In this document: positions 140-63,494 of the stretch, in pieces | Layout: the number at the start of each line of letters is the position of its first letter | How positions within the stretch are numbered: position 1 is the first letter of the stretch | Origin: a virus | Strand: one strand, 5' to 3' | IMG/VR virus record: IMGVR_UViG_2919005990_000001 | Location: 1-64,000 of that record | DNA: 64,000 bases | Program-made: the position numbers and the translations under genes | Notes under the pieces: generated by a model | Told to the model about the DNA's origin: nothing | Databases searched by the model: none | The model's input: only the letters and a program-made list of their open reading frames with translations

Positions 140-180
140 TTAGTTTACGGATTTCAACGGCGGGACCTGGGCCATATTCC
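140..180 (-). promoter_or_regulatory. 41-bp upstream element (family variant)
   Basis: Minus strand GGAATATG-N26-AAACTAA, 26 nt upstream of ATG 113. Confidence 0.6.
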
Positions 181-1724: not shown

Positions 1725-1753
1725 GAAGACACTCGATAATTTTTTAATTACAG

Positions 1754-1794
1754 CCATTTTGACAAAATTAAAGGCGGACCCTTTTTGATATTCC
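1754..1794 (-). promoter_or_regulatory. 41-bp upstream element
   Basis: GGAATATC-N26-AAAATGG, 29 nt upstream of ATG 1724. Confidence 0.6.
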
Positions 1795-2008: not shown

Positions 2009-2023
2009 TATCGGTTTTTATGA

Positions 2024-2569: not shown

Positions 2570-2595
2570 GGCTTTATGCTCTGTGTTGAATAGAT

Positions 2596-2636
2596 CTAGT
2601 TTACGGATCTAAACGGGGCCACTTGGGCCAGATTCC
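2596..2636 (-). promoter_or_regulatory. 41-bp upstream element (family variant)
   Basis: GGAATCTG-N26-AAACTAG, 26 nt upstream of ATG 2569. Confidence 0.6.
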
Positions 2637-2642
2637 AGGCAT

Positions 2643-2671
2643 AAAAAAGCCCGCATATTGCGGGCCTTTTT
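2643..2671 (-). terminator. intrinsic terminator
   Basis: aaaaaagcccgcatattgcgggccttttt. Confidence 0.7.
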
Positions 2672-3822: not shown

Positions 3823-3853
3823 AACAGCTGCTTCAATCGATAAAATAATATTG

Positions 3854-3894
3854 ATATTTTACGGATCTCGCCGGCGGGACCTGGGCCAGATTCC
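3854..3894 (-). promoter_or_regulatory. 41-bp upstream element (family variant)
   Basis: GGAATCTG-N26-AAAATAT, 31 nt upstream of ATG 3822. Confidence 0.6.
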
Positions 3895-3900
3895 AGGCAC

Positions 3901-3929
3901 AAAAAAGCCCGCTATTTGCGGGCCCTTTT
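3901..3929 (-). terminator. intrinsic terminator
   Basis: aaaaaagcccgctatttgcgggccctttt. Confidence 0.7.
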
Positions 3930-3931
3930 AC

Positions 3932-4915: not shown

Positions 4916-4941
4916 GGCGTTTCGCTCTCTATTGAATAGAT

Positions 4942-4982
4942 CTAGTTTACGGATCTAAACGGCGCCACCTGGGTCAGATTCC
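4942..4982 (-). promoter_or_regulatory. 41-bp upstream element (family variant)
   Basis: GGAATCTG-N26-AAACTAG, 26 nt upstream of ATG 4915. Confidence 0.6.
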
Positions 4983-5886: not shown

Positions 5887-6149
5887 GGATCACTTTTCCA
5901 ATTAAATGCCGTTAGGACATTTAAAAGGAATGGAAAAGCGTAATTTATGAAAATTCCTAAAAGTAAAAGGGCACAGCAAAACCAGGCGGTGCCTGGGAAA
6001 TCGGCCAGGTAAGCCAGACAGGTTAGAAACGTCATGATCGCGGCCCAATTGCGCTTACATGATGTGGTATCGATCACCTTATTAGATATAAACAGTGCGA
6101 CTAGGGCACCTAAAAGGACGATTAAAGCGATAAGCATGTGTAGAGTCAT
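5883..6149 (-). CDS. small membrane protein (about 3 TM), holin/antiholin candidate
   Basis: ATG 6147-6149 is preceded by a strong AGGAG SD. The product is hydrophobic and sits directly upstream of the endolysin, to which it is coupled. Confidence 0.6.
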   Translation of the reverse strand: MTLHMLIALIVLLGALVALFISNKVIDTTSCKRNWAAIMTFLTCLAYLADFPGTAWFCCALLLLGIFINYAFPFLLNVLTAFNWKSDP

Positions 6150-8362: not shown

Positions 8363-8387
8363 AAAAACGCCCCATATCAATATGAGG

Positions 8388-8428
8388 CTATTTTGAGGGC
8401 TTTAAAAATACCGCTTTTTGGATATTCC
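8388..8428 (-). promoter_or_regulatory. 41-bp upstream element
   Basis: GGAATATC-CAAAAAGCGGTATTTTTAAAGCCCTC-AAAATAG, 25 nt upstream of ATG 8362. It abuts the upstream stop codon. Confidence 0.65.
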
Positions 8429-8715: not shown

Positions 8716-8735
8716 GCATCACCTTAAATCAACAT

Positions 8736-8762
8736 TGTTCAATTGAACATGATGTTCATTTA
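8736..8762. promoter_or_regulatory. palindrome array (1.5 units of TGTTCAWWTGAACA, 17-bp period)
   Basis: tgttcaattgaaca at 8736-8749 and the half-site tgttcattt at 8753. It lies between terminator 8770-8791 and ATG 8715. Confidence 0.55.
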
Positions 8763-8769
8763 AGCACGT

Positions 8770-9165: not shown

Positions 9166-9339
9166 TTACTCCGAACGATCTGGCTTAACAGGCTCTATTT
9201 TTTCAGCATCAGCCAGGCTGATACTCCCCGCAATATGACTAAATAGCTTGTACTCGGCAATATATGTTGCTTCTACGCAATCCTGGCCCTGATTGAAAGT
9301 CACTAGATATCGAGCGCCGTCACTTAAATCTTCTTTCAT
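9166..9339 (-). CDS. hypothetical small protein (57 aa; below the ORF-track cutoff)
   Basis: My own translation is MKEDLSDGARYLVTFNQGQDCVEATYIAEYKLFSHIAGSISLADAEKIEPVKPDRSE. An AAGGA SD lies 8 nt upstream, and the palindrome array is immediately upstream. Confidence 0.5.
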   Translation of the reverse strand: MKEDLSDGARYLVTFNQGQDCVEATYIAEYKLFSHIAGSISLADAEKIEPVKPDRSE

Positions 9340-9366
9340 TTTATAATCCTTTTAAAGTTCTATATT

Positions 9367-9409
9367 TGTTCATTTGAACATTATGTTCAAATGAACATCA
9401 TGTTCAAAT
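9367..9409. promoter_or_regulatory. palindrome array (2.5 units)
   Basis: Units start at 9367, 9384 and 9401. On the minus strand TTGAAC-N16-CATAAT gives a sigma70-like arrangement upstream of ORF 9166-9339. Confidence 0.6.
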
Positions 9410-9500: not shown

Positions 9501-9941
9501 TTACAGGGCTTTCAGACGGTTTTCATATTCATACAGATTAATGAAATACTGTTCATCCTCATTCAAACACCATTCGCCGGTATTCTTCAGCACGGTTTGC
9601 TTATGCATCTGGCTGTACTGATCGGCGGCAAGCAAAGTGGCTAAATCATCACCTGGGACGCTATAGGCTTCGACCACGTTCACCGGGTACTGTGTGCGGG
9701 CTAAAAAATCCTCTTCAGTTTCCCCGCCATGCAAGGCAATTACACGTTCTACCGCCGGCAAATAAACACCATAGCTTAACCAGGCATCTATGCCCTGTTT
9801 TGCTTGCATTTGCGCGTTAATGTGCATGTTCTTGATCACTGCTGCTACGGGGTCAGTTTCGCCATTCTGCTCCAATACGGCGCGTACATGCGCCATAAGT
9901 GGGGCTAGTTGCTCTGCATCTGGCACAAGCTTGGTTATCAT
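9501..9941 (-). CDS. hypothetical protein (146 aa)
   Basis: ATG start 5 nt after the stop of the 2130-aa gene. A terminator lies downstream at 9465-9487. Confidence 0.65.
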   Translation of the reverse strand: MITKLVPDAEQLAPLMAHVRAVLEQNGETDPVAAVIKNMHINAQMQAKQGIDAWLSYGVYLPAVERVIALHGGETEEDFLARTQYPVNVVEAYSVPGDDLATLLAADQYSQMHKQTVLKNTGEWCLNEDEQYFINLYEYENRLKAL

Positions 9942-9946
9942 TGTTC

Positions 9947-12900
9947 TTATTCCTCGTAAAATTCAGTTTCAGACATATTAAACCAGTCTTGTTTCAGCAT
10001 CCATAGCATCACTTCCGGTTCCACGATCCAACGGGTTCCGCGTGAATCCCAGGCGCATTTCTTGCCGATACTTTCCGCGTACTTTTTCATGTCATCTTTG
10101 TAAGTGTCCTTAAACTCACGGCCAAATGACCCCAAGCCCAGGAATGCCACGCCGGTGACTTTGATGTTTTTGAATCGGCCCATGCCACCATGCACTTTAG
10201 TATATTTTTTCACTAAAGCTTCAGGACTATCGGCATCCAGGGCAAAGTTTTTCATAATGCTGACAAAGTTACCCAGGCCGCGGGTTTTGGCCTTGAATGG
10301 TTCCACACTTGTGACCTGGTGCCCAATAGCAGACGTCAAAATAAATTCCAGGACTTGTTCGCGTAGGTCATCACTCAAAATGGTGTCATAGCTAAATGGC
10401 AGTACCAGGGAACCGCCGATCACTTTGCCAAACTCCCCATTGATCCGGTTTCTAAATTCATCTTCAAAGGCTTCGACATAACGCACGTCTACCCCATCAA
10501 AGTTGATCTTCAGCTTTTCGGTTTGAGCAAAGTAAAATACGTCATCGAGCACGTCCATCATGGTTGTTCTGGCGTACTGCATCTTGTCCATATTGCGGTT
10601 ATCGATCTCGGCCACCGTGTTTAAGATGCTTTCTTTCTCAACACTCAGCACGATTCCATCAAATACGGCGTTATAGGCTTTGACTAGATCCGGGTTATTG
10701 GCTGCCAGGCTTTCAAAGAAATTCGGCGCCCAGTAAAAGCGTTTTGTGTCTTTGTGGCGGATCTCAGTAATACGCACCCGGGTTTTACCACTCAGCCAGT
10801 TTTCCTGTACCCCTTTTAACTTGGATTCTACCGCCTCGCGTACTTCAGGGAATACCGAACTAAAGCGGGCAATATCACGGTAATCAGACGTTGATAACAA
10901 GCCATAATCAAAGACTTTCGCGCTTTCCATGCGTTCCAGTTCAAAGTCTGCAAAAGCTTGAATAGCAGCTGCTCGTTCATTCGGTTGAATGAACTCAAGA
11001 TTGCCGACTGACGAATTAAAGGAATTGGCGTATTGATAGAAAATACTGCCATTATTCACAGACACAATGCCGTAAAACATGGCGCCTTTTTCTGGATTGC
11101 TTGTCTTGACAATATCGCCATTACGCGCCAATTTCTGATTTTTAATGACGGCGGTGCCATCAAATAACATGGCCCGATCATTGGCTGAATATGGACTGTC
11201 TTCATATTTAAGCAGCTGCTCTTTGGTGCTGACTGCCATGCGCTGAATAGACTTGTACTGTTCTTTGGCACGGCCATGAATTACGCCCTTATTTTCAGCC
11301 AGAACATTTTCTACCAGGTCACTTGATTTAAAGCCTTCGCCAAATGCATAAGATGAAAAAGAGCCGACATAACTGATTTCACCGCCACGGGGTTCGGCAA
11401 AGCGGCTTAGTGCACGGTCCCAGTTTTCAGCCGTGTTATTTGGAATATAGCCATCATACTGCTGCACAATTGCGGCCTTACGCTGCTGTAGATCTTCCAG
11501 GGTTTCGGCTTTTTTGGTTTTGCCTTCAGTCTTCAACAAAGCAACATACTTGGTGAAATCACTCACAATAATTTCTTCAGTGATCGCCGTTTCAGATTTC
11601 GCGGCCTTCTCTGCTGATCGTTGTGCAATGGTCAAAAGCATGTCTGTTTGCTTGGTTGCACGGTCTAAACGGGCCTGGTTCTCGCGCTCGGTACGTTGCT
11701 GTAACAGCTGCTCAATGGCTTCTTGACTGTCCGCCTGGATCAATGAATCTAAATCATCATCTGACAGTTCACCTGTCACCGTCAAAGTACCGCCGGCACT
11801 GCTGTCCTTGTTCATCAGCTTGGTAATCCAGTCTGACTTGCCGTTAATGATGCTTAGCTTGTATTCATCAAATGAACCGTTGGCGTTGTACATGTACACA
11901 CGCACTTTGGCCTGTTGGTTGCCCTGACGTACACCACGGCCATTACGCTGCTGCAAGCTGTCTGGCGTCCATCCTGTCGTTAAATGGTGAATGGCCTGGG
12001 TGCCACGTTGCAAGTCGATCCCGGTGTCTGCCTTTTTGTTGGCAATGACTACGGTGTACTTGTCCGATGCAAAGCCGTCCTGGATATCCTGGACGTCATC
12101 TGTCCCGACCTTGCCTGAAGAGCCATCTGGCTTGATTGCTGCGTTTAAGATCGCAATTTTTGAGGCATCAATGCCGCAATACTGGATCAAAGCCTGTTTA
12201 ATCGTATGGTGCATCGCCAGGGTGTCACAGAAAATGATTTGCTTGGCATGGCCGTTATGCATTGGATTGGTTTGTTCAATCTTAAAGTTTTCAATCATCG
12301 CCTGAAGTTTGGCAGATAATTTAGGCTTTAGATCCAGGCCGAACTTGGCCGCAATTTCAAATAAAATAGCAATGGCTTTGGTATCGTTCGCCGTCAAAAA
12401 TAAACGGTTCTGATCTTCATCCACATAGGCCCGTACAGTGATTTCATATTCATCCGCATCACCAAAGCTTTTCCCGCGGTTTTTGATTTTGATATCCGCC
12501 TCTTCGACCAACGGATAAGTACGCTTGGTTGTAAATTTAGGCGGCTTTTTGTTGAAGGCTTCAACGACCTGTTGGGTCAAAGTATCGTCTTTAGGTGAAA
12601 TATAATCGATGTAGTAACCACGCTCCATAACGGCGCTTTCACCCATCAAAATCAAGTCCTGCATCTTCATGATCAAGTTGAATGGATGGGCAATCAGTTC
12701 AACCGGTTCCCCTAGTTTTTCGCACATGTCCTCTAAAAACTTCACATCGTCTGCATCGCCCTGGACTGAACCTCTACTGGCTGCCTGACGGGCCAGGCCA
12801 TAAGCGCGTTTAAGATCGGTCAAAGTGGCACGGTCTGCCGGTGATAAATCAATATTGGTTTTGACTGGCACCGCTTCAGGGATTTTTAAATCATTTTCCG

Positions 12901-15900: not shown

Positions 15901-16339
15901 CTGCAAAAATACCGGTTCCCGCGCATGGATCTAAAACGGCGCCGCCCTCAAAGCCTAGATCTTGCATCAAGGCCCACATCGCGTCCGCCAGGGGTAACGG
16001 CGTGTAGTACTCGTACTGACTCCCCTTCACACCTTCGACTTCCAGGTTTCCGCCCTTGCCCGTGTAGCGTGACAAAATCAGCTTTTCATCTTCAGTGGCT
16101 TTACGGCTTGGATCAGCGTCTAATTCACGCAATAATTCAACGGCGGCATTATTGGCCTTTTGACGGATGGCCGGGGTGATTTTAGTGTCATGGAACTGAA
16201 ACGCCCCGCTTGGCATATCTGAGGGTGATAACTTGCTTTTAAGGGTGTCTATCGCACTTAAAAAAATGCTTAGTCCCCGTTTGGCCGTTTGATTCACTGG
16301 CATAGCCATTTTCTCTATTGATAAAAGGTACACCGCCAT
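9947..16339 (-). CDS. giant N6-adenine-type methyltransferase / SNF2-DEAD-like helicase fusion (P1 DarB-like)
   Basis: Methyltransferase motif I VLDPCAGTGIFAAG and motif IV ITNVPFG lie at aa 135-206. Helicase motifs are GFDVGLGKTMTAIA (I), FDEAQMFKN (II), LLSATPITNS (III) and QQRNGRGVRQGN (VI), spanning nt about 11900-13830. The start could also be ATG 16301-16303. Confidence 0.8.
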   Translation of the reverse strand: MAVYLLSIEKMAMPVNQTAKRGLSIFLSAIDTLKSKLSPSDMPSGAFQFHDTKITPAIRQKANNAAVELLRELDADPSRKATEDEKLILSRYTGKGGNLEVEGVKGSQYEYYTPLPLADAMWALMQDLGFEGGAVLDPCAGTGIFAAGRPANVVMQSVELDGVSGSINAKVNDQNNHNVIVSPFEAVAARTEDNSYDAVITNVPFGSRKDRGDNPRLDIYADDDLDSYFVKRSIDKLKYGKLGVFLASTKLMTGASSRKFRQQISLKAEMVGAYRLPNKVFHPTGADVVTDIIVYRKHSQELTEKLENLYQNGQIKLLQESRVLDADIIAGKYFKTEGIKNVLGQSVQVPDWRNKAREIEAVISDESLPNIIKMIRRFPDSRIDLAMLDLAEMQDVPGLNDGDIRVMGGTTFEYKAGQWHAIKQDAAFNHADNFGDALMAFHTGMTLSDLQQYQAYCIASGQKVETWAASLLDAVKKNADSYGYWLVQFALYQALQTEINGKYAERYSQLSSAMQGIAADVKAKKYKSSALRTMLTFNAKAFDGADLSAYWYGTAVDLAVSLDAKSAYENAVYAGRADNFMVDVNDIRASDPDFDPLTNPDYAINADGTKVSLNRDYYAGNYGEFLKRIDAEIEAATDPKVRAKLLAQREKGQSYVNFVDASSLSLSLRATNIDLKIKTEFLSMYGGNEVFINTEGKVEVLAKVIPFEDALRYQNNGYRSDELRIYFLNRLLVSINNNQRLSLGVAKTVNRQDHDVVMNAFLKYCKEIDATFGSYLNANEAFMAELDQKLNDPMNKEMVTELDESPIEIAGFAPKFEGFKSLQTYQNAEIRRLSRRFEGITGFDVGLGKTMTAIAAAINLHNIGIKKRTVFVVPSHTISKWYRDITMTKSDSSDVLVIGSKGNTLEAVNSSHYGADLNLLIQSKAWRMIVMTSDAFTMLPLKDSTIEKYYERKLSKYDRSKDKDNQAYKAFMADKIADLQGSEKGRLPYFEDLGIDSIVFDEAQMFKNGDASEGTGNFNTIRGLSLLAEKQLSKRAISAKVKSDYVRKTNDLGDGVVLLSATPITNSPSEILTMLSLAVGEDKAKNILGGASIETVDDFLSTFANTESIEGMDITGGLRSDETFTGFKNVALLKNALHSIGNIQTAAENDLKIPEAVPVKTNIDLSPADRATLTDLKRAYGLARQAASRGSVQGDADDVKFLEDMCEKLGEPVELIAHPFNLIMKMQDLILMGESAVMERGYYIDYISPKDDTLTQQVVEAFNKKPPKFTTKRTYPLVEEADIKIKNRGKSFGDADEYEITVRAYVDEDQNRLFLTANDTKAIAILFEIAAKFGLDLKPKLSAKLQAMIENFKIEQTNPMHNGHAKQIIFCDTLAMHHTIKQALIQYCGIDASKIAILNAAIKPDGSSGKVGTDDVQDIQDGFASDKYTVVIANKKADTGIDLQRGTQAIHHLTTGWTPDSLQQRNGRGVRQGNQQAKVRVYMYNANGSFDEYKLSIINGKSDWITKLMNKDSSAGGTLTVTGELSDDDLDSLIQADSQEAIEQLLQQRTERENQARLDRATKQTDMLLTIAQRSAEKAAKSETAITEEIIVSDFTKYVALLKTEGKTKKAETLEDLQQRKAAIVQQYDGYIPNNTAENWDRALSRFAEPRGGEISYVGSFSSYAFGEGFKSSDLVENVLAENKGVIHGRAKEQYKSIQRMAVSTKEQLLKYEDSPYSANDRAMLFDGTAVIKNQKLARNGDIVKTSNPEKGAMFYGIVSVNNGSIFYQYANSFNSSVGNLEFIQPNERAAAIQAFADFELERMESAKVFDYGLLSTSDYRDIARFSSVFPEVREAVESKLKGVQENWLSGKTRVRITEIRHKDTKRFYWAPNFFESLAANNPDLVKAYNAVFDGIVLSVEKESILNTVAEIDNRNMDKMQYARTTMMDVLDDVFYFAQTEKLKINFDGVDVRYVEAFEDEFRNRINGEFGKVIGGSLVLPFSYDTILSDDLREQVLEFILTSAIGHQVTSVEPFKAKTRGLGNFVSIMKNFALDADSPEALVKKYTKVHGGMGRFKNIKVTGVAFLGLGSFGREFKDTYKDDMKKYAESIGKKCAWDSRGTRWIVEPEVMLWMLKQDWFNMSETEFYEE

Positions 16340-16359
16340 TTTAGATAAGTGAAATTGGC

Positions 16360-16376
16360 CTATTTTTGAGTATTCC
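16360..16376 (-). promoter_or_regulatory. short variant of the upstream element (no 26-nt spacer)
   Basis: GGAATACTCAAAAATAG, 20 nt upstream of ATG 16339. It follows terminator 16384-16406. Confidence 0.4.
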
Positions 16377-16411: not shown

Positions 16412-16648
16412 TTATTCATTAAATAAGTAAAATGGCAAGGATAGCATCACTTCACCATCCTGGAGTTCTGAGGGTTTAGGAATCGGTTTACAGTCATCCC
16501 GGTAAATAATCAATGCAGTTTCAAAGGCATCTAAGGCTTCAGACAGCGCCGCATCATAATTATCAGCAATAGCGTTTAACTCAGGGATATCACGTGAACT
16601 CACTAGATATTCATTATTAGTTTTTTTAATTAGAATTGGGTATTCCAT
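16412..16648 (-). CDS. HicB-like (UPF0150) antitoxin-fold protein with no DNA-binding domain and no HicA partner
   Basis: MEYPILIKKTNNEYLVSSRDIPELNAIADNYDAALSEALDAFETALIIYRDDCKPIPKPSE fits the HicB N-domain pattern. It has an AAGGA SD and terminators on both sides. Confidence 0.5.
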   Translation of the reverse strand: MEYPILIKKTNNEYLVSSRDIPELNAIADNYDAALSEALDAFETALIIYRDDCKPIPKPSELQDGEVMLSLPFYLFNE

Positions 16649-16736: not shown

Positions 16737-18080
16737 TTAAACCAGGTCGGCTTCTAGTCTTTGCCCGGCACAGATTTCAATCATCCCGCCCAGGGCTTCA
16801 GCATGCACAATATTGCCACAACGGCGGATCGCTTTTTCAATATCCCCCATGCTGTAATCCTCGGCTGAATCAAAGACAATGGCCGGCACATACTTCTCAG
16901 CATGGCTTGAAGCGATTGCCAGGCGATTACGGCCATGTACAACAAAATACTTGCCTCTGGCCTGAAAAACTACAATCGGCTCTCTAATGGTCGCTTTGGC
17001 CTCTTTTAAGCTAGGACTTAGCTTGCTTTGATCCAGTTTGCTAACAGGCAATAAATCAAATTTCCCATCAGCGGCCCATGAATCCAACATCATGCCGCGG
17101 ACGCTATCGAATAACGCCGTTTGGCCGGTAAAGATCCGGGCTTTAAACTGCTCAAGACTGAGTTCGATAATCTGGCCGATACCGCTGAACTTTTCATCAT
17201 AATGCGCCTGGTACAGCTGCTGCGCTTCATTATTCGAGTTCACACCTAAAATGACCTTATGTTCGTCAAAATCACCACGTTCATCCAACTGATTCATGAT
17301 GAATACTTTGCCGTCATAGTCATGTGGGGTATTCGGTGCAATAAACACGTCCAGTTCATCACCATCTGCGCCCAGGGTATTTTCAAAGTAGCCATAGTGA
17401 GCGGTCATTGTGGTTTCCCAGTCCTGGCCGTTCTTATCCGTGCCCTTTCGGGTACTGCCAATCGGGTTTTCGATAGCGATATCCATGCCGGCAATATTGA
17501 CCTTCGCCGTTTTATAGTCATTCGCTATCAGCTGCTCTTGGGTTTGGGTTTCCCCTTCATGCAGCGGACTTGTGGCGGCCGCTTGGGCCAGTGCATCAGG
17601 TAGTTGCACCACCTTAGATCCATTGACCAATTGATTGAACCACTCCGGCCCTGGAATTTCACCCTTGACGCTATCAAGCATCAAGTGGGCAAGTTGCCCA
17701 ATCAATAAAGCACCATCAGCGCCCAGGCTATCAAGTAGGGCTCCGCTTTCAACCTTTGCTGATACCGCTTTGACGGCATCTAAAAAGATCGGTGGCACCG
17801 TAGCGCTGTTTAACAGCATCTTGGTCGATGTAACGGCGCCCTGTAGGGTTTCCAAAGTGATTTCATTGTTCTGCACAATGCGCTCAAATGGGGATAGATC
17901 CACACTGATTTCAGGCACTGCGGCCTGGGTGGCGGCAATGCCACCACCCAATAAAGCCACAATGTCATTCACCCGGCGCGATGCCTTAAACTTTTCCATG
18001 CCCTTGATGGCGCCGGAATTAACCTGGGCCACCAGGCTATTAAGTTCACGCGATAATTTAAATTTATCAGCTGCTTTCAT
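16737..18080 (-). CDS. fusion protein: unknown N-terminal region, inorganic-pyrophosphatase-like domain and ParB-like nuclease domain
   Basis: IAIENPIGSTRKG..HYGYFENTLGADGDELDVFI..VFIMNQLDERGDFDEHKVILGV parallels E. coli PPase (IEIP.., [39 protein letters not shown]), nt about 17181-17498. The C-terminal PIVVFQARGKYFVVHGRNRLAIA is ParB-like (nt about 16820-16988). Confidence 0.6.
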   Translation of the reverse strand: MKAADKFKLSRELNSLVAQVNSGAIKGMEKFKASRRVNDIVALLGGGIAATQAAVPEISVDLSPFERIVQNNEITLETLQGAVTSTKMLLNSATVPPIFLDAVKAVSAKVESGALLDSLGADGALLIGQLAHLMLDSVKGEIPGPEWFNQLVNGSKVVQLPDALAQAAATSPLHEGETQTQEQLIANDYKTAKVNIAGMDIAIENPIGSTRKGTDKNGQDWETTMTAHYGYFENTLGADGDELDVFIAPNTPHDYDGKVFIMNQLDERGDFDEHKVILGVNSNNEAQQLYQAHYDEKFSGIGQIIELSLEQFKARIFTGQTALFDSVRGMMLDSWAADGKFDLLPVSKLDQSKLSPSLKEAKATIREPIVVFQARGKYFVVHGRNRLAIASSHAEKYVPAIVFDSAEDYSMGDIEKAIRRCGNIVHAEALGGMIEICAGQRLEADLV

Positions 18081-18089
18081 GTTGGCACC

Positions 18090-21000
18090 TTATGCGATGG
18101 TTTGTGCATTTTTCAATGCAGCTTGTGAATAGGCTTCAATGGCTTGTTCAAACAGGGCCTCATGCGCCGGTTCCAGATTCTCGCCAATCTGTTCAATTCG
18201 GTTTGCCGTGTCTTCAGACAGTAGATCCACATTGCCGGCAATCACATCATTTAAGAATTGCTGATCCTGGTTCGCCTCTGTCGGCTGCTCTGCTGCATTC
18301 ACCTGGTTCCATCGATCAATCGTTTCGTTTGCACGTTTAATTGAATCTTCAATTTCAGCACGATACTTTTCATCACGGAATTTACGCTGTAGTACTGCTT
18401 CAGCCTTTTCAATCCAGGGCTTGAACTTGCCTGGTACATCGGCATTCTTAAATTCAGACGGCGTATGGCCCTGCAAATCTAAAATGATGTGGTCAAGCAT
18501 GCGGTAGGCGTCTTCGGCTTCTTTCTTCAGCACAATACCGGCCGGGGCTTCATTGTTCATTTGAACATTCTGTTCATTCTCGACCTGGGCCGGAACTGCG
18601 TTATTAATTAAACCTGCCAAGTCCTGTGCGACCAGGCTTAAATCATCGCGTAGATTGAACGCGGTGCCAGGGATGCTATAGGTCACGCCGACCAGATTGG
18701 CCCCACCGCCGACCTGTTTAAGATCCATCTTCAGCGTATAACCATTCTTGCTTAGATCCTTAAAGCGTTCACCAGTCCATCCCAGGTCACGCAAAGCATT
18801 GCGGGTATCGATTAAACGGCTTTGGAAAAATGAATCAAGCGGATCTTGCCATTCCTTCAGCTGCTCTTCATCGTTCATAATTTTTGCATAGTCACCGGCC
18901 TGGGTCGCGTCCGTGATTTCATCCACTGGCGCCGCCGTTGCATAGCCCTGGACAAACAACATGATCTCTTTGGCTTTGGTTTTAATGCCTTGCTCTGAGG
19001 CTTCAGGCAGGGTGAAGGTCTGAATGTCTTCATCCGCGGTATTGTTTAACGCAATTTCGCCACTCTTACGGAATGGATCAAATTGCAGTTTTAAACGGTC
19101 TGATTGGCCTTTTACTTGCACTTCAATAACCGCGGTACTGCCCGCTTTCTCCCATCCATTTGCATGTAACTCAGCAATCAATGCTTTCACTAAATCAATT
19201 GCGCCGGCGTTCTCATACGGATTGTCTGAAGCCACGATCCCCAGGACGTCTGCACCGATCACCAGGCTTAATTTAACGGCCATATCAGCAAAGGTATAGG
19301 ACTTATCCCCCATTGCTTCACCCATGCCCATCATGCGATGTGTTAGCCAGGCTTTCGTTCCTTCTAAGTCCCCTGCATATTGACCGCCTACGCCGTCCAG
19401 ATTAATCAGTACTTCATAGAGTCCGCCCTCTACTGGCTGAATTGTTACGGTTCCGGCTGCCTTACGTGCACGTGGATTCGCGGATTTAATTGCATAGACT
19501 GATTTCTTTAATTCAGCTTGATCATTGTTCATTTGAACATTCTGTTCATTTTGTTCATTTTCCAGAACTTTAATAAACATATTCAACACTTCGCCATCAG
19601 CACCAACACTATCCAACATGGCATTGACATTGTTTTGTTCAGTTTCTATACTGTCATTAAGGCGGTAACTGCCGATGTGGGTCAGCGGATCAAGCTTGTC
19701 TTGAATGGCTCCCGCCGTTAGAAGTGTTACTGCATGAAGCCCGTCTAATAGCGGGCTTTTTGCATTTTTGAACATATTAGGACTAATCGTGTGATCATAG
19801 TGATAATGTCCTTTGTCATCCTCACGAATTACAAAACGCACTTCCACTTTTTCTTCTTTTAGAACTAAAGGCGCTGTCAAAATATGATAAGCCTTGATGT
19901 TGCTTTCACCTGCATCATACGATGGCATTGATTCAGCCAGTTCTGCATTAGCCAATAGATCTTTAAGCGCCGCAAGGGCCTGTAATTTACGCGCATCGCT
20001 ACTGAGGCTCAGGATCTTTTTCACGCCGTTTTTACGAATTTCAACATCGGCATTAAGGGCCGGGCATGGGTAGGCATTACCAATCATTTCAGACAAAGCG
20101 GTTTTTACTACTGCACGTAGTTCCTTCTTGTCTTCAGGTAAATTAAACTCCCCAAATTCATCGCCGGTCAGTTCTGGCACCTGGGCGGCTTCAGCAACTA
20201 ATTTTTGCAAAATCTCAGCAATATTCACCTGGGTCGCTTGGTCTGTCGTGAATGCTGCAATAGATTCGGAACCGCTGTTACCCTTCAATAGATCCAGATT
20301 CCCGTCAAAATCGACTGAAGCGCGGGCCAATACATTGCCGTCTTTGCCAATTTGTGCGGTGATGCCATAAATTAACTGGCCTTGATGATCGATAGAATCA
20401 AATAAGCCGGCTGTGGCTTCGGTCTGATTGAAATCAGCGAATACAATGTCCAGGCCACATGCTACGGCGGCCTTTTTCAGCTGCTCGACCGTGAACGCAT
20501 AATCGCCAGTTTTGCCCAAATAGGGTGATGTTTCGTCTTCAATTTCGCCTTCATTGCTAAAATCGAAATCACGTTCAAAGGCCCGCTGTGCAATGGCTTT
20601 AACAATGTAGTCCACGCTTTCAGTGGTATCGATAGTATCTACGATTAAACGCATTGAACTAAGTTCAATCTCTGGATTCTCTTCATCTTCATCTGTGGCG
20701 ATTTCCAGGTCATAGCCATTGTCAGACTCAAGTTCGACATGCCATTCGGCTTGTGTTGATCCTTCAGGCTTGCTAAAGCCATGCTCATTGATCAGGCGCA
20801 TGACGATTTCATTCAGCTTGGCAATAACGGCCGTTTTTGCCTCCTGGTTTTGATCTAAATCGGCTTTTAGTCCTTCGTGGAACTTGTCTGCACCTGCTTT
20901 GGCTTCATCCTCAAGTGATACCGGATCTACGGCGTCCTTTTGCTGCATTGCCAGGGCTTCGGTTTCTTGCTGCTTGCGGATCATTGCGCCGTCAATCTGC

Positions 21001-22120: not shown

Positions 22121-22161
22121 CTATTCTGACTGAATGAAAAAGGCGGCTTTTTTATTATTCC
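22121..22161 (-). promoter_or_regulatory. 41-bp upstream element
   Basis: GGAATAAT-AAAAAAGCCGCCTTTTTCATTCAGTC-AGAATAG, 32 nt upstream of ATG 22088. Confidence 0.6.
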
Positions 22162-24425: not shown

Positions 24426-24457
24426 TAAAAAAGCCCAATTATGCGAATAACTAGGCT

Positions 24458-24498
24458 CTATTTTCGGCTTTTAAAAAAGCCCTCTTTTTTGATATTCC
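24458..24498 (-). promoter_or_regulatory. 41-bp upstream element
   Basis: GGAATATC-AAAAAAGAGGGCTTTTTTAAAAGCCG-AAAATAG, 32 nt upstream of ATG 24425. Confidence 0.65.
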
Positions 24499-27245: not shown

Positions 27246-27868
27246 TAGAAAATACCTTTCAGCGCATTCACTAAGGTATTGCCTGCAACCACGGTATTAA
27301 GCAGCTGCTGTGCTTTGCCCAGGATATTGTTTGCACCTGCAGCGGCACCAACGATCTGACCGATTTTATTAACGCTACCCAGGTCGCCATTTAGGCCGTA
27401 ATAGTTGTATTTCACAGACACTTGAACGCGCTGAATAGTGCTCACACCCTCAGAATCCACATCAATTGGCTCAAAGGTCAAAGCCACGTTGGTTAGGCGA
27501 TGGGCATGCATATAACGCCCCTGGCGGCCATCATAAACCCAACAATCAGTCTGGCCGCCGCGGGCCATGATCAATTCAGCAAATGCAGTGGCTTGTCCGA
27601 AATCGGTTTCAATGATCTGCCATTGCCCTTCGTAACGGGTTTTTGGTGCACCAGGCACGTGAAGCTGCGCACCACCGGCCAGGTTGAAGTCGGCGGCGTC
27701 ATTATTGGTAATAATGGGACGGTTGAAGTTACTAATCAGCAAGGCGATTTCTGGCATTGCATCCGGCACGATCATGCCGTTACTTTGCAGCATTGCTGCG
27801 CCTAAGCTTTGTGCTGCAATTGCATCGCCAGTAAAGTCGGCAACTGTGTTGATAAAGTTTTGCTGCAT
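27245..27868 (-). CDS. tail tube protein candidate (gp19-like)
   Basis: HRLTNVALTFEPIDVDSEGVSTIQRVQVSVKYNYY resembles the C-terminal tube motif. The 41-bp element lies 27 nt upstream. Confidence 0.45.
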   Translation of the reverse strand: MQQNFINTVADFTGDAIAAQSLGAAMLQSNGMIVPDAMPEIALLISNFNRPIITNNDAADFNLAGGAQLHVPGAPKTRYEGQWQIIETDFGQATAFAELIMARGGQTDCWVYDGRQGRYMHAHRLTNVALTFEPIDVDSEGVSTIQRVQVSVKYNYYGLNGDLGSVNKIGQIVGAAAGANNILGKAQQLLNTVVAGNTLVNALKGIF

Positions 27869-27895
27869 GGCTATAAATCCAGGTTTGGTTTATAG

Positions 27896-27936
27896 CCATT
27901 TTGAAGGGAAAAAAACGGCGGGTTTCTTGATATTCC
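27896..27936 (-). promoter_or_regulatory. 41-bp upstream element
   Basis: GGAATATC-AAGAAACCCGCCGTTTTTTTCCCTTC-AAAATGG, 27 nt upstream of ATG 27868. Confidence 0.65.
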
Positions 27937-30595: not shown

Positions 30596-32037
30596 AAACT
30601 TTCCCCCATGCCTTTTGATGTTTTGATATCAAAGGTGATACTGCCATCGCCGATATAAAGCCATTGGTTCGGCTTGATCGGGTTCTTGTCCAGGTCTTCA
30701 ATGTCAATTTTGAAATCAGATTGACGGTCTTGAAAGGCCAGGATAGAGCGGTTCATCAGCTTGTTAATTTCTTGCAAGTTAAAGCCGTTCGGTAGGTGAT
30801 AACTGGATGCCATCTGCTCTTTACCGTAGTTACTCAGTAACAGGCTTTTAATCTGCGCTTTCACGGTTTCCACATCATGCACCGGGGCCAATGTGCCTTT
30901 AATAAAGATCTTGAATTGACGCTGTTCCACGGCTACCAGGCGGGTACGCTCTCCGGCATACAGGCTGTCGGCCTTGCCAATATGCTGCCGGATCTCTTCA
31001 CCCATCAGGCTATATTCACCACCATTTTTAGGCACAAAGCTGACAAATAAATGATTGATATTTTCGACATTGGCGCCAAAGTACTGCTCATGGATGGATT
31101 CATTCCATACGTTGATATAGTGCGTTCGAGCCATAAACTTTTTACGGATCAGAAAGTCAAAGTTACCCAAAAAGACGGCGTTATCATCATGGGTCGGATA
31201 AGAGGCAAGTAGGCGCATTTGCTCAACACTCAAAGGATTGGCCCCCATACGCACCAAGCCGCCGATATCAAAACGCAAGCGCAAGCGGCTTTCTTGTGGG
31301 GTTAAAATCTCCTGGAAACTGGCCTCTTTTAAAATATTCGGATCAATATAGCCGTAGCTTTCTCGAATATTGATTGTCAGCACGGTATTGGCGGCCAGGG
31401 TACGGCCATACAGGCTTGAATCACCAAATTCTAAAGTAATGTCGCGTAATGAGTCGGTCTTTAAAATAATCGCATGATCCCCGGCCAGGGTATTCATCCA
31501 ACGGGTGACAAAGTTATAAATATTGTCATCCTGGTCGCGGACGTTGAGGGATACTAAAGACATATCCTCTTCAATCGGCAAGGTGAACTGATAAAACGGC
31601 GCACTTTCAACAATGGTACGCTCGATCTGGCGCACCTGGGATTGTTCGGCCAATACTCGGGTTTCTTTTCCGGCCAGGATCTCGGCATTTTGTAAAAAAC
31701 GCCACGGTCGGCCCTGCCCGTCTTCAAAGGTACGCCCTGACGCAATGGTCATCCGGCTATTGCCGTTATTCAGAATCGTGACATAGTGCTGACAAGGTTC
31801 GGCCAGGGGTAAAATTCCTTTATTACTGGCATCGGCCAAAATGGTCGCTTCACGGCTTTTAACAAAGGGCTCAAGCTCTGACACGTCCACATCGCGGCTC
31901 AGTTCGGCAAGCATGTGCTGCATGGCCTGAATGGGCGCCGTCACGGTCGGATCTCCGGCATTGTAACGTGCTGCGATTTCCGGGTACTGCTGCAAGGCAA
32001 TCGCGGTAACTTGTTGGATCTTACTTAATGACGGCAT
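30580..32037 (-). CDS. baseplate wedge protein (gpJ / gp6-like)
   Basis: REATILADASNKGILPLAEPCQHYVTILNNGNSRMTIASGRTFEDGQGRPWRF fits the Baseplate_J pattern. It follows the gp25-like gene. Confidence 0.5.
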   Translation of the reverse strand: MPSLSKIQQVTAIALQQYPEIAARYNAGDPTVTAPIQAMQHMLAELSRDVDVSELEPFVKSREATILADASNKGILPLAEPCQHYVTILNNGNSRMTIASGRTFEDGQGRPWRFLQNAEILAGKETRVLAEQSQVRQIERTIVESAPFYQFTLPIEEDMSLVSLNVRDQDDNIYNFVTRWMNTLAGDHAIILKTDSLRDITLEFGDSSLYGRTLAANTVLTINIRESYGYIDPNILKEASFQEILTPQESRLRLRFDIGGLVRMGANPLSVEQMRLLASYPTHDDNAVFLGNFDFLIRKKFMARTHYINVWNESIHEQYFGANVENINHLFVSFVPKNGGEYSLMGEEIRQHIGKADSLYAGERTRLVAVEQRQFKIFIKGTLAPVHDVETVKAQIKSLLLSNYGKEQMASSYHLPNGFNLQEINKLMNRSILAFQDRQSDFKIDIEDLDKNPIKPNQWLYIGDGSITFDIKTSKGMGESLWAIL

Positions 32038-33257: not shown

Positions 33258-33298
33258 TCATTTTGACGGATTCATAAACGGCACTTTTTCGATATTCC
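33258..33298 (-). promoter_or_regulatory. 41-bp upstream element
   Basis: GGAATATC-GAAAAAGTGCCGTTTATGAATCCGTC-AAAATGA, 29 nt upstream of ATG 33228. Confidence 0.6.
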
Positions 33299-33328: not shown

Positions 33329-33345
33329 GTTTAAATACCTGGTAT

Positions 33346-33376
33346 TGTTCATTTGAACATAATGTTCAATTGAACA
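33346..33376. promoter_or_regulatory. palindrome array (2 units)
   Basis: Units at 33346-33359 and 33363-33376. It starts 3 nt after the stop of ORF 33380-34123 and is followed by a terminator and then a 41-bp element. Confidence 0.55.
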
Positions 33377-33379
33377 ATT

Positions 33380-38072: not shown

Positions 38073-38113
38073 CTATTTTTTCAGAATAAAAAACCCCTCT
38101 TTTTCGATATTCC
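38073..38113 (-). promoter_or_regulatory. 41-bp upstream element
   Basis: GGAATATC-GAAAAAGAGGGGTTTTTTATTCTGAA-AAAATAG, 41 nt upstream of ATG 38031 (capsid gene). Confidence 0.65.
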
Positions 38114-40163: not shown

Positions 40164-40198
40164 TAAAAAAAGGACTAAACCTATTATGGTTTAGTCCT
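40164..40198 (-). terminator. intrinsic terminator after the tail fibre gene
   Basis: The minus strand reads AGGACTAAACC-ATAATA-GGTTTAGTCCTTTTTTT. Confidence 0.7.
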
Positions 40199-40221
40199 TT
40201 TGTGGCTTTTCTGGATATTCC
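40181..40221 (-). promoter_or_regulatory. 41-bp upstream element overlapping a terminator hairpin
   Basis: GGAATATC-CAGAAAAGCCACAAAAGGACTAAACC-ATAATAG, 30 nt upstream of ATG 40150. Confidence 0.5.
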
Positions 40222-41845: not shown

Positions 41846-41886
41846 AAGTTATAACCTGCTTCAAAAGGGTGGCTTTTTCATATTCC
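41846..41886 (-). promoter_or_regulatory. 41-bp upstream element (weak heptamer)
   Basis: GGAATATG-N26-ATAACTT, 26 nt upstream of ATG 41819. Confidence 0.45.
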
Positions 41887-46130: not shown

Positions 46131-46159
46131 GGAAAAGCCCCAACGATTTGCATTTGGGG

Positions 46160-46200
46160 CTATTGTGAAGGCTTTAAAAATGGGCCTTTTTTGATATTCC
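46160..46200 (-). promoter_or_regulatory. 41-bp upstream element
   Basis: GGAATATC-AAAAAAGGCCCATTTTTAAAGCCTTC-ACAATAG, 29 nt upstream of ATG 46130. Confidence 0.65.
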
Positions 46201-46717: not shown

Positions 46718-46742
46718 GGCTTATCACCTATTGGGGATAAGC

Positions 46743-46783
46743 TCATGCTAAACGGCGCTCCAAAGCGGATTTTTCAGTATTCC
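46743..46783 (-). promoter_or_regulatory. 41-bp upstream element (weak heptamer)
   Basis: GGAATACT-N26-AGCATGA, 25 nt upstream of ATG 46717. Confidence 0.4.
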
Positions 46784-47386: not shown

Positions 47387-47397
47387 TTTTAAGGCTG

Positions 47398-52959: not shown

Positions 52960-53000
52960 TTATTAAAAGGGATCAGACGGCGCCGTATTTTCGATATTCC
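52960..53000 (-). promoter_or_regulatory. 41-bp upstream element (variant)
   Basis: GGAATATC-GAAAATACGGCGCCGTCTGATCCCTT-TTAATAA, 34 nt upstream of ATG 52925. Confidence 0.5.
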
Positions 53001-61588: not shown

Positions 61589-61629
61589 CATTATCAGACG
61601 GCGCCGTATGGGCCCTTTGCGCATATTCC
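61589..61629 (-). promoter_or_regulatory. 41-bp upstream element (variant)
   Basis: GGAATATG-CGCAAAGGGCCCATACGGCGCCGTCT-GATAATG, 30 nt upstream of ATG 61558. Confidence 0.5.
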
Positions 61630-61691: not shown

Positions 61692-62828
61692 TTATTCCAT
61701 TTCCTCAAACTCAACGTCCGTAATTCCTGAATCTGCCTCGGCCATACGGCGTTCCATTTCGGCATCAGTGTCTTCTTGAAGGCCACCAGAATCGATATAA
61801 CGTCTACGGGCCGCAATACGTTCACGCTCTGCTGCCAGGCGCTCACGTTGGGCATCATAGGCAGTATTATCATTCAAATCATTCACGCGCTTAGCATCAT
61901 CAACGTCTTTCAAGTCTTCCATCTGTACGCCGTATAACGACAACTGGAACTTAATGTTTTCCCGCTTGTTGAAGGATAGGTCACTGTAAATTGCGGACAC
62001 TTCACGCAATGCATTCAATTGGTCCTTCAGCTCCTTAATCATGGGCTTGGTGAAATTGCGCCGTACTGCATCTGACAGCAATAAGGAATACACCATAATC
62101 AAATTATCAGACAGCCGATCCCCAAAATCGTTATTCAACTCCATGCGCTTGCGGGCCTTCACAATGACTTCGGCCTGTTTTTTACGCCGTACTTGTGAGC
62201 CCATAAGGAGATTTTTGATATTACTTTTTTCGTTCTCTACGATCTCGGCAATAAAGTCAAAATCATAGGCCCGTGTATCTAGTTCCCCGTGCTCATGGTC
62301 TTGTTCTTCCTCAGTATTTATAGAGGCAATGAAGTTTTTAAAGTCCTGCTCTGAAGTCAATTTATTGACACTGCGACTCATTTTTTTTAATACAGTGTCA
62401 CTTTTTTTTATGAGCAAATCGGCCCGCTGCCATCCTTCGTGTTCAGCCTTGATAGCAATGCTTTGCTGTGATGGAAAGTCGTTACACTGCAGCTCATTTT
62501 GGACTTGTTCCTTGAGGCGCTTATAACTCAGCTTCGGATTGGCCTCATAGATACTACGAATACATAGCCAAAGGTCATCACTATATTTGTTCGGTGCAAC
62601 TCTTAAAGTGTCTTCACTTTCAAATCTTTCCCATTTTTCCTTTGTTGCCCGGCGGTGCACAGTGCTCTTAGATGGGAATTTATCCAGGTTAAATTCAGCA
62701 CATAACAGGTCTTTAATCTTGTCATACGGCGGCTGTGATCTGGATTCATAACACGTGCGAATTTCTTTCCATAAATCAGTATCATGGCGTTTACTTATCC
62801 CCGTATTTAAATCCATTTCTTTGCTCAT
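61692..62828 (-). CDS. protein with two tandem 70-aa helical (HTH/Myb-like) repeats and an acidic coiled-coil C-terminus; DNA-binding candidate
   Basis: DLWKEIRTCYES..FPSKSTVHRRATKEKWER and DLWLCIRSIYEA..FPSQQSIAIKAEHEGWQR. Confidence 0.4.
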   Translation of the reverse strand: MSKEMDLNTGISKRHDTDLWKEIRTCYESRSQPPYDKIKDLLCAEFNLDKFPSKSTVHRRATKEKWERFESEDTLRVAPNKYSDDLWLCIRSIYEANPKLSYKRLKEQVQNELQCNDFPSQQSIAIKAEHEGWQRADLLIKKSDTVLKKMSRSVNKLTSEQDFKNFIASINTEEEQDHEHGELDTRAYDFDFIAEIVENEKSNIKNLLMGSQVRRKKQAEVIVKARKRMELNNDFGDRLSDNLIMVYSLLLSDAVRRNFTKPMIKELKDQLNALREVSAIYSDLSFNKRENIKFQLSLYGVQMEDLKDVDDAKRVNDLNDNTAYDAQRERLAAERERIAARRRYIDSGGLQEDTDAEMERRMAEADSGITDVEFEEME

Positions 62829-62831: not shown

Positions 62832-63494
62832 TTAAACTTTTTCAGGCTTTCTAAATTCAATGTTATGTGTCAGTTTTAAACTCGACATTTCATCACCGCT
62901 GTTTTCACTTTCGAGCAAGCTCATCATGGATAATTCCATTTGACGCATCTGCTTAGCAAAAAACATTTCAAACATAGCAACATTTTTTTCGAGTTCTTTG
63001 GCCGCTTCCAACACATCGGCATATTCAGCTTTAAAAACCAGGTCATGCGAATGCTTTTTAATAACCTCTGTAAGCTGCTTAGAACTGTTTTTTAATAACT
63101 CTCCCTGGAACGGCGGCAAATGACTAATAGACTTACTGACGTTCATGCACAGCTGCTCTGTTGCTTCCAGTACCGAACCGCGGATCGATTGAAATACCAT
63201 GCCTGAATATTTTGCAGCCAGGTTATTACGCTCAAATTCATCACTAAAGCCCAGGATAAAGTCCGCGCTGCAGCCGTAGACTTCACACATTTTAAAAACG
63301 GTCTTTAATTCAATTTTCTTTTCACCACATTCGAGCTCACTAACTCGATTGGCGAACATTTTGTCATTTCGATACGCCCAAATGAGTTGCATCGCCTCTT
63401 TGCGATTTAATCCGGCAATCTCACGGGCCAATTTGGCATTATGCCCAACGACCTTATAAAGCTTACGATCAAACGTAATATTCTCTTCACTCAT
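62832..63494 (-). CDS. XRE/Cro-C1-type HTH regulator
   Basis: AKLAREIAGLNRKEAMQLIW...VSELECGEKKIELKTVFKMCEVYGCSADFILG. ATG 63492-63494 makes an ATGA overlap with the VRR-NUC gene. Confidence 0.6.
   Translation of the reverse strand: MSEENITFDRKLYKVVGHNAKLAREIAGLNRKEAMQLIWAYRNDKMFANRVSELECGEKKIELKTVFKMCEVYGCSADFILGFSDEFERNNLAAKYSGMVFQSIRGSVLEATEQLCMNVSKSISHLPPFQGELLKNSSKQLTEVIKKHSHDLVFKAEYADVLEAAKELEKNVAMFEMFFAKQMRQMELSMMSLLESENSGDEMSSLKLTHNIEFRKPEKV

Follow-up and report, generated by a model that had tools for sequence, protein, structure and literature searches.

The 64,000-nucleotide stretch analysed here (the window; positions 1 to 64,000 of the IMG/VR virus record IMGVR_UViG_2919005990_000001) has all its genes on the minus strand, and ahead of its portal gene lies one copy of a two-part sequence element that recurs throughout the window. 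This index copy (24460..24498, minus strand) consists of an upstream box, GGAATATC (24491-24498), and a -10-like hexamer, GAAAAT (24460-24465), which is followed by a predicted transcription start near 24452-24453 and by the portal ATG at 24425. A terminator-like hairpin with a T6 run (24427..24457, minus strand) lies between the hexamer and the ATG. We propose that the copies are late promoters belonging to a P1-like Acinetobacter phage-plasmid, each used by the host sigma70 RNA polymerase (RNAP) together with a phage-encoded activator, and we put the probability of this reading at about 0.72.

Gene content and relatives of the window

According to PHROGs and Pfam, the window encodes portal, sheath and baseplate proteins, a tail-collar fibre, a DarB-like methylase/helicase of ~2120 amino acids (aa), a DarA_N protein and an InPase-domain protein. 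Its PacB-like terminase is 35% identical to P1 PacB, and its portal is 25% identical to P1 Prt, 40% to the portal of Acinetobacter phage vB_AbaM_ABMM1 (ABMM1) and 32% to that of Xanthomonas phage Rb1. The source contig (Ga0672995_0000330) measures 81.8 kilobases (kb), and one identical protein is on record from Acinetobacter lwoffii. Megablast searches of phage and plasmid collections returned no near match to the window; the relatives are circular Acinetobacter plasmids of 71-83 kb, and contigs of ~70-90 kb are present in many Acinetobacter species. Because homologues of Dar, Pac and portal proteins are present and the relatives are circular plasmids, the window is, judged by its gene content, part of a distant P1-like temperate myophage or phage-plasmid of Acinetobacter.

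A two-block motif upstream of the late genes

The first-pass annotation had described the element as an octamer, GGAAT(A/C)T(C/G), then exactly 26 nucleotides (nt), then a heptamer close to AAAATAG, and had placed 17 copies on the minus strand, all of which were found where it had put them. The motif is commoner than in shuffled sequence: a search for GGAATMTS-N26-ANAATAG with at most one mismatch gave 10 matches against 0.09 expected, and none of 100 shuffles reached 10. All 13 occurrences of the form GGAATATC are on the coding strand. When genes are modelled with ATG starts, the coding strand has 28 intergenic gaps of at least 60 nt, and the motif is present in 17 of these, 15 of 20 in the late/structural region (1-47 kb) and 2 of 8 at 47-64 kb. 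The copies at 140, 2596, 3854 and 4942 are paralogues in a tandem fibre-gene cassette and hence are not independent of one another. The motif is absent from the early operon (L010 1-9900, ~10 kb), which is situated upstream of the window, and a degenerate-motif scan of IMG/VR yielded scattered single matches only, among the matches listed.

Several details of the earlier description have to be amended. GGAAT stands at the 5′ end of every listed site, but the octamer as a whole departs from the pattern at 22161 (GGAATAAT) and at 46783 and 16376 (GGAATACT). The supposed spacerless variant at 16360-16376 turned out to be the 5′ part of a full copy (16338-16376, hexamer TAAAAT). Constant spacing applies to most copies, but in the copy at 61589-61629 the hexamer lies one base further away (gap 26 instead of 25 nt). 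The distance of 25-41 nt between heptamer and ATG stands, as does the remark that copies often adjoin the previous stop codon or a terminator. With the full copy at 16338-16376, 18 copies precede portal, capsid-like, DarA-like, DarB-like, fibre and lysozyme-like genes.

Anatomy of the proposed promoter

A weight matrix built from 14 copies consists of an invariant GGAAT followed by A, T and (C), an A-tract, a GC-rich centre, a T-tract and a hexamer, N-A-N-A-A-T, whose A2, A4, A5 and T6 are each present in 12-13 of the 14. Exemplified by CAAAAT, GAAAAT, CATAAT, GATAAT, TAAACT and TAGCAT, with the consensus (C/T)A(A)AAT followed by (A/G)G, the hexamer comprises the last spacer base and the first five bases of the heptamer described earlier and so lies one base upstream of it. 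N-A-N-A-A-T has the information pattern of a sigma70 -10 box. Of 46 copies taken from five genomes, 36 have an A as the seventh base past the hexamer and 36 have a pyrimidine just before that base; among the 18 window copies, 15 have the A. On account of this frequency, the A 7 nt downstream is the likely transcription start. With this A as +1, the hexamer occupies -12..-7, GGAATAT -45..-39 and the A-tract -36..-32.

The first-pass annotation had considered the 28-nt gap between its blocks too wide for a -35/-10 pair, and this was borne out. Positions -35..-30 are taken up by the A-tract and a G, with nothing TTGACA-like or -35-like; the late region has fewer canonical -35/-10 matches than expected (17 versus 31), none of them at a copy of the motif. 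Two kinships suggested for the heptamer found no support. Its conserved part has the profile of a sigma70 -10 hexamer shifted upstream by one base rather than that of a T4 late -10 box (TATAAATA), and no sigma-like protein was found in the searches described below; the CTATAG end of single-subunit RNAP promoters does not fit blocks that lie 25-27 nt apart with freely varying sequence between them, and the same searches found no RNAP.

Three further assignments were tried and rejected. GGAATA as a -35 element, with the T-tract/TTTAAA (positions 23-29) as -10 and a start in AAAAT, would place the -10 where information is low and where ABMM1 and Rb1 show no conservation. The spacer pattern that had been described (A5G, GC-rich bases, T5) is real in this genome, but its centre varies among orthologues and the pattern is absent in ABMM1 and Rb1; as the central bases change without keeping the pairing, A5G...CT5 is not a conserved hairpin or cruciform. 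The palindrome ACGGCGCCGT, common to the copies at 52960 and 61589, was considered as a conserved operator, but L135 and L137 do not conserve it in their orthologous promoters. We also noted a 17-mer, ATACGGCGCCGTCTGAT (palindromic core ACGGC|GCCGT), with two exact copies (52972-52988 and 61593-61609, minus strand) that sit inside two motif copies at differing distances from the box. Not being conserved in the L135 and L137 promoters either, it is probably not essential.

Conservation in relatives

At orthologous intergenic sites in four relatives with portals 60-75% identical (L016, L017/L140, L141 and L013), box, gap and hexamer are kept and the spacer centre changes freely; this includes the index copy, whose box and -10 are kept in all four while its spacer varies. 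The gap between 8-mer and hexamer is 25 nt in the clade of the window and 26 nt in L013. More distant genomes have their own versions of the box. L142 and L143 carry several copies each with GGAATAA/GGAATTT and a gap of 26-27, and L144 and L145 several copies each with GGAACAA and a gap of 25. In ABMM1, TGGAAC(T/C) with a gap of 26 precedes annotated late genes ~15 times, with 17 matches on the late-gene strand versus 2 on the other; promoters are not mentioned in the published description of this phage. Rb1, with a GC content of 66%, has 13 matches to GGAAA[A/C/T] plus hexamer on the plus strand and none on the minus strand, the gap being exactly 27 in 9 of the 13; GGAAAAA accounts for 7 of the 13, and the box form is GGAAAAAC. 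The GGAA-box class is not universal in the wider lineage, since none was found in a Pseudomonas fluorescens phage-plasmid with a portal 30% identical.

In L136 (Acinetobacter albensis JBJXCW010000015), an isolated remnant (9568-11140) was seen in a chromosomal island that carries restriction-modification and transposase genes. The remnant comprises a promoter copy, GGAATATT-N25-GACAAT, a 75-aa open reading frame (ORF) and a 379-aa homologue of the TerS-like protein discussed below.

Search for a polymerase, sigma factor or activator

The suggestion of the first-pass annotation to look for a phage RNAP or gp55-like sigma factor led to neither: among 40 ORFs scanned against Pfam, none matched a sigma factor (Sigma70_r2/r4) or an RNAP, none of ~60 ORFs is so annotated by PHROGs, and genes of either kind are missing from the annotation tables of ABMM1 and Rb1, whose genomes are complete. 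Nor was an RNAP-like ORF found among the large unassigned ones: those of 883 and 630 aa have no Pfam match, and PHROGs classes those of 883, 630 and 703 aa as unknown, lysin or tail-lysin type. Since the hexamer and the start signature are sigma70-like, the spacer is variable and no sigma factor or RNAP gene was found, the phage probably continues to rely on the host sigma70 polymerase, which is not the impression that the first-pass annotation gave.

These results bear most directly on the strongest competing explanation, in which the element is the bipartite promoter of a phage-encoded alternative sigma factor or RNAP, with GGAAT/GGAAC acting as a -35-like block, TCAAAAT/AAAATAG as its own -10 or initiation element, and host sigma70 playing no part. 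The consensus for Escherichia coli sigmaE is GGAACTT-N16-TCAAA, and GGAAC/GGAAT together with (G/T)TCAAA resembles it; moreover, many small ORFs of the window are without annotation, phage sigma factors are often too diverged for Pfam, and 7.2 kb of the contig lie outside what was scanned. However, the likeness to promoters of the extracytoplasmic function (ECF) type, which extends over GGAAC/GGAAT and (G/T)TCAAAAT, is probably fortuitous. Between GGAAT and the TC of TCAAAAT lie ~27 nt, as against the 15-18 nt spacer of ECF promoters; the blocks are ~10 base pairs (bp) too far apart, and among the ORFs scanned no ECF sigma gene was found. The 25-27 nt that follow the 8-mer likewise exceed any spacer of the sigma70 family by ~10 bp, ABMM1 and Rb1 show no conservation 16-18 nt downstream of the box, and the hexamer profile with its start signature 7 nt downstream fits sigma70. 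Taken with the negative Pfam and annotation results, this makes a dedicated phage sigma factor or polymerase improbable.

For the activator that the proposed late promoters would need, a positional candidate is a conserved XRE-type helix-turn-helix (HTH) protein of 220 aa with a coiled-coil tail (62832..63494, minus strand). The order Holliday-junction resolvase, HTH protein, TerS-like protein is found in the window phage, L135, L137 and ABMM1 (gp67-69, with gp68 as the HTH protein), and also in Rb1 (gp1, gp2, TerS), where one small ORF separates the HTH gene (gp2) from the TerS-like gene. This block lies just upstream of the first late promoter, and in P1 lpa holds the equivalent position, ahead of pacA. 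In all three lineages a GGAA-box promoter stands before the HTH operon or the HTH gene (at 59517 in ABMM1 and 690 in Rb1), which could provide positive feedback if the HTH protein were the activator. The best fold matches of its modelled N-terminal domain are controller C proteins of restriction-modification systems and Xre regulators, and a comparison of its profile with Lpa by hhalign gave a probability of 0.1. That this protein is the late activator is an argument from gene order, and we regard it as rather unlikely.

A second protein was considered for this role and set aside. The 378-aa product of 61692..62828 (minus strand) contains two HTH-like repeats and long coiled coils; its AlphaFold2 model has no significant match in the PDB, the best weak one being the I-gamma domain of MuA. 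Because the HTH repeat matches the N-terminus of the annotated terminase small subunit of Rb1, the protein is probably PacA/TerS-like rather than an activator. The early genes also include those for a Fis-like HTH_8 protein of 83 aa (Pfam; in the early operon) and for a 135-aa zinc-ribbon protein, and no member of the Mor/C family was detected among the 40 ORFs scanned.

Hairpins across the predicted start

At copies whose box coincides with the end of the previous gene (8428, 24498, 27936, 40221, 46200 and 46783), a strong hairpin starts 1-3 nt past the hexamer. Its 5′ arm, often CCUC or CCCC, occupies the discriminator, the 3′ arm contains GGGG or GAGG or pairs with the AUG, and a T-run followed by the ATG often comes behind it. 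At the portal gene, the 5′ arm AGAGCC lies between the -10 hexamer and the predicted start, and the 3′ arm with GGGC just ahead of the ATG; the leader has a fold energy of -13.6 kcal/mol when taken from the end of the -10 versus -1.1 kcal/mol from the predicted start, and the hairpin is kept in the orthologues. The orthologue of copy 8428 in L013 has another hairpin sequence at the same position, and in the hairpin of copy 27936, compared across five orthologues, 4 of 13 pairs have compensatory changes. In some relatives the hexamer itself falls into the 5′ arm, the loop or the 3′ arm.

Across 75 copies from 11 genomes, fold energies average -12.4 kcal/mol over -32..ATG and -1.6 kcal/mol over +1..ATG, and 738 of the 900 pairs (82%) involving the 5′ untranslated region (UTR) are formed with a base upstream of +1. 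Shuffled upstream sequence folds less stably than the real one (real -12.7 versus shuffled -7.6; originally mean z -2.2, Wilcoxon p 2e-9), in a sample whose orthologues are not statistically independent. Downstream hairpins have -8.3 kcal/mol where no terminator precedes the box and -3.3 kcal/mol where one does. Because a start upstream of such hairpins would be self-defeating, they independently support the start-site assignment. On predicted structure, the window-type promoters seem to have the insulation arrangement known from T4 gene e. What is new here is that hairpins, as terminators or as start masks, straddle the predicted start at many late promoters.

Similar pairing was seen at two late promoters of P1 (L001), LPdar (31183-31230) and LPsit (46576-46626), where the 5′ arm of a hairpin spans the -10 or the discriminator and the 3′ arm holds the Shine-Dalgarno sequence, paired CCUCCU/AGGAGG at LPdar. 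For RNA beginning at +1, the fold energy changes from -10.7 to -1.7 kcal/mol at LPdar and from -9.0 to -0.9 kcal/mol at LPsit.

The same hairpins invite a reading in which the element acts in RNA, as a processing or antitermination site (nut/put-like) or an attenuator leader, with transcription coming from far upstream and a phage antiterminator overcoming the hairpins as terminators. Terminator-like hairpins do stand directly before the ATG at many copies, several boxes adjoin the previous stop codon with no terminator between, so that read-through RNA would contain the element, and P1 is suspected to encode antiterminators (PMC10695390). Yet box and hexamer are short, unpaired and held apart by a freely varying spacer, and no conserved RNA structure includes the box. 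Eight copies lie directly behind a strong terminator, so that little read-through RNA would carry them; the hexamer has the character of a -10 with a pyrimidine-then-A start at the right distance; and the position of the hairpin relative to the hexamer varies, always remaining compatible with a start inside or beyond the hairpin. We therefore consider an RNA element very unlikely and retain the late-promoter reading.

The copies along the window

In transcription order, the first copy (61590..61629; this and all following copies are on the minus strand) precedes a 703-aa lysozyme-like gene and has the box GGAATATG, a gap of 26, the -10 GATAAT and a terminator upstream of the box; its orthologues in L135, L137 and L136 keep the box and GATAAT/GACAAT. 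The copy at 52962..53000, with GGAATATC and TTTAAT, lies before a 187-aa gene (52362-52925). Two hairpin-bearing copies follow: 46745..46783, with GGAATACT and TAGCAT before a 166-aa gene, where the hairpin 46715-46747 pairs with the start codon, and 46162..46200, with CACAAT before a 286-aa gene, where a hairpin and T-run (46131-46160) pair CCCC of the discriminator with GGGG. Right behind the stop codon of the terminase large subunit, 41848..41886 (TATAAC) precedes the tail-collar fibre gene, and at 40183..40221, before a 94-aa gene, the -10 CATAAT sits in the loop of a 14-bp terminator hairpin (40168-40201) that is followed by a T7 run. Terminators lie upstream of the box both at 38075..38113, before the 630-aa gene of a probable major capsid/head protein, and at 33260..33298, which has CAAAAT and precedes a 174-aa gene. 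At 27898..27936, before a 207-aa gene, the start codon is paired, in the hairpin 27867-27899, with the discriminator and the last part of the -10.

Beyond the portal gene, 22123..22161 (GGAATAAT, CAGAAT) precedes the DarA-like gene of 1332 aa and 16338..16376 (GGAATACT, TAAAAT) the DarB-like giant gene. The first ATG (16339) of the listed 2130-aa DarB-like ORF falls within the -10 hexamer of its own promoter; in relatives the gene is called at 2118 aa, and its true start is probably 30-36 nt downstream of the listed ATG, at 16309 or 16303. The copy at 8390..8428 (CAAAAT) lies before a 257-aa gene and has a hairpin with a T5 run (8363-8387) that pairs CCTC of the discriminator with GGGG. The last copies include the fibre-cassette paralogues 4944..4982 (GGAATCTG, TAAACT, with a terminator upstream of the box), 3856..3894 (TAAAAT), 2598..2636 (TAAACT) and 142..180 (TAAACT, before a gene that runs off the window), together with 1756..1794 (CAAAAT) before a gene of ~500 aa ending at 231. 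Four tandem fibre-like genes lie within window 1-4982 (one ending near 113, the others at 2024-2569, 2671-3822 and 3932-4915), share the N-terminus MPHETEILFNE and each have an upstream terminator and a GGAAT promoter copy of their own. This array is a cassette of alternative receptor-binding proteins, unlike P1 with its invertible C segment. Between the InPase-domain and DarB-like genes, a HicB-like antitoxin ORF (78 aa, 16412-16648) has no GGAAT promoter of its own.

Two weaker sites were also recorded. One, GGAATAAA-N25-CATAAT (L010 9948-9987, corresponding to ~63984-64023 of the window and thus mostly past its end), stands directly before the last early operon, which encodes a VRR_NUC nuclease, the XRE-type HTH protein and the 378-aa protein. 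The other is a possible degenerate 19th copy, GGAATTTT-N25-TTAAAT (5917-5957, minus strand), before a 286-aa gene (5026-5886); its matrix score is low (18.6) and its hexamer lacks the A at position 2.

A second dispersed repeat

Another repeat of the genome is the palindrome TGTTCA-WW-TGAACA, for which 34 strand-matches were counted where 1.3 would be expected. Usually 2-4 units follow one another head to tail, repeating every 17 bp, in gaps between genes from which the GGAAT motif is absent. Arrays lie at 8735-8767, 9366-9398, 33345-33377, 47355-47387, 49177-49226, 53018-53050 and 56881-56913 of the window, and single units at 18553-18568 and 19525-19540; L010 has further ones at 9224-9256 and 17061-17093. 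Two arrays are located just upstream of the GGAAT copies 33298 and 53000. By analogy with the C1 operators of P1, these arrays look like distributed repressor operators, or else like iterons.

Since such arrays suggest that dispersed protein-binding sites are in use here, and since the XRE family of the candidate protein is rich in repressors, the GGAA box might itself be a repressor operator, or alternatively a replication, partition or packaging site or a small mobile repeat that stands before genes incidentally; but repressors usually act at the core promoter, whereas the box is ~26 bp away from the -10 on its upstream side, its orientation and its distance to the -10-like hexamer and the start codon are fixed, no other promoter-like sequence is available for these operons, and the copies occupy orthologous sites with unrelated flanks and show no target duplications or terminal repeats, so that we give this explanation hardly any credence.

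Discussion

That the element is a late-gene promoter class with a phage-specific upstream recognition site, as first suspected, is supported by position, statistics and conservation. Its combination of a -10 hexamer, no -35 and a short, lineage-specific box near -42 argues for an activator-dependent late promoter. The mechanism that we propose builds on these features and on the predicted pairing. The activator would bind the asymmetric GGAAT(A)(T) box at -45..-39, centred near -42, and recruit or stabilise the polymerase, and the host sigma70 enzyme would use the N-A-N-A-A-T -10 without a -35 hexamer. With ~18 such promoters, the late region would be split into many short operons, an organisation comparable to that of P1 with its 11 Lpa-dependent promoters. 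The sequence between -10 and start would form the 5′ arm of a hairpin whose 3′ arm, in the 5′ UTR, carries the start codon or a G-run resembling a Shine-Dalgarno sequence. Read-through RNA from upstream would then terminate or have its translation start masked, and RNA initiated at the promoter, lacking the 5′ arm, would be unstructured and translatable.

Several observations weigh against this proposal. Position 1 of the hexamer is usually C, with T in the minority, a poor fit to sigma70. With short UTRs, truncation inevitably costs some of the fold energy, the orthologous copies on which the comparison draws are not statistically independent, and the copies 22161 and 38113 as well as the fibre cassettes have no convincing downstream hairpin. 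A homologue of Lpa was not found, either by tblastn against the window, L010, L013 and the complete ABMM1 genome or in a comparison of ~60 ORFs with PHROGs (phrog_1704), and the ~7.2 kb of the source contig left out of the searches could encode a sigma factor or an activator. XRE proteins usually bind dyads, whereas the GGAA box is asymmetric. Finally, the copies are taken as late from the genes that they appear to serve.

The related 70-90 kb Acinetobacter phage-plasmids and temperate phages form a large and largely unannotated family, which takes in the cultured phage ABMM1 and elements of clinical A. baumannii. For this family, the prediction of ~18 late operons and their start sites supplies a testable transcription map. 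The motif can also be used for annotating start codons, as for the DarB-like gene, and for designing late-phase reporters in Acinetobacter.

Comparison with known promoter systems

P1 Lpa (gp10) works together with host SspA. Transcription of the P1 late genes depends on this activator at 11 promoters, each combining a -10 with a 9-bp Lpa-binding box further upstream (PMC10695390). With the P1 boxes taken from the AF234172 annotation, the similarities to the window are evident: in a plasmid-prophage lineage, dispersed late operons each have a promoter of their own (among them LPs, LPsit, LPdar, LPpro and LPpac), with a sigma70-type -10 (CAGAAT, TACCAT, TACCCT), no -35 and a short upstream box. 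However, the P1 box, AAGTKACTT, has 9 bp and lies 4 bp upstream of the -10 (the '-22 region'), whereas GGAAT(AT) is 25-26 bp upstream with its centre at ~-42. With another box, another distance and no detectable Lpa homologue, the GGAA-box promoters are outside the Lpa class. P1-type late regulation seems to have been kept in these distant relatives with a different box, a different geometry and probably a different activator, and the identity of that activator thereby becomes a well-defined question.

Class II activators occupy sites near -42. In phage Mu, whose middle and late promoters are activated by Mor and C, the late promoters have a -10, no -35 and a site for the C protein centred at -43.5, overlapping the -35 region (PMC2582627). 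Given the predicted start, the GGAA box would be centred at -42, -43 or -44 for gaps of 25, 26 and 27, respectively. The Mu site, however, is a 16-bp imperfect dyad bound by a dimer, in contrast to an asymmetric box of 5-7 bp with no dyad in box or flanks. In the absence of a dyad and of any Mor/C protein among the ORFs scanned, the GGAA-box promoters are outside the Mu class as well. Promoters of single-subunit polymerases (T7/N4-type) are ~20 bp long and contiguous to +1, unlike two blocks separated by 25-27 variable nt. The sigma54 consensus has GG at -24 and GC at -12, 10 nt apart (TGGCAC-N5-TTGC); here, the bases 12 nt past the GG belong to the A-tract and are not GC, and TGGAAC of ABMM1 has no conserved TTGC downstream.

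Tentatively, and with somewhat less than even confidence, we suggest that a widespread P1-like lineage in Acinetobacter (A. baumannii, A. pittii and A. lwoffii included) and related Xanthomonas phages uses a new activator, neither Lpa nor Mor/C, which would recognise a short asymmetric GGAA(N) box at -42, with a box specificity that has diverged (GGAATAT, GGAACY, GGAACAA, GGAAAAAC) and with promoters built into terminators or masking hairpins genome-wide; by position, the XRE-type HTH protein is its best candidate. Each late operon would in that case be shielded from read-through and strictly dependent on initiation driven by the activator. For the hairpins, the precedent is T4, in which a late start within a hairpin that masks translation of early read-through RNA is experimentally established for gene e and for I-TevI, with soc and 49 listed as further cases (PMC3014915). 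As at these four genes, the predicted start lies inside or beyond the 5′ arm, and the 3′ arm holds the Shine-Dalgarno sequence or the AUG. T4 employs this device at few genes and with gp55-type TATAAATA promoters, whereas here, on predicted structure, it seems to be employed at a large share of the late promoters, often together with a T-run. A promoter-in-hairpin design known from few T4 genes thus appears to be in genome-wide use in this phage, and can also be seen in the predicted folds of two late promoters of P1.

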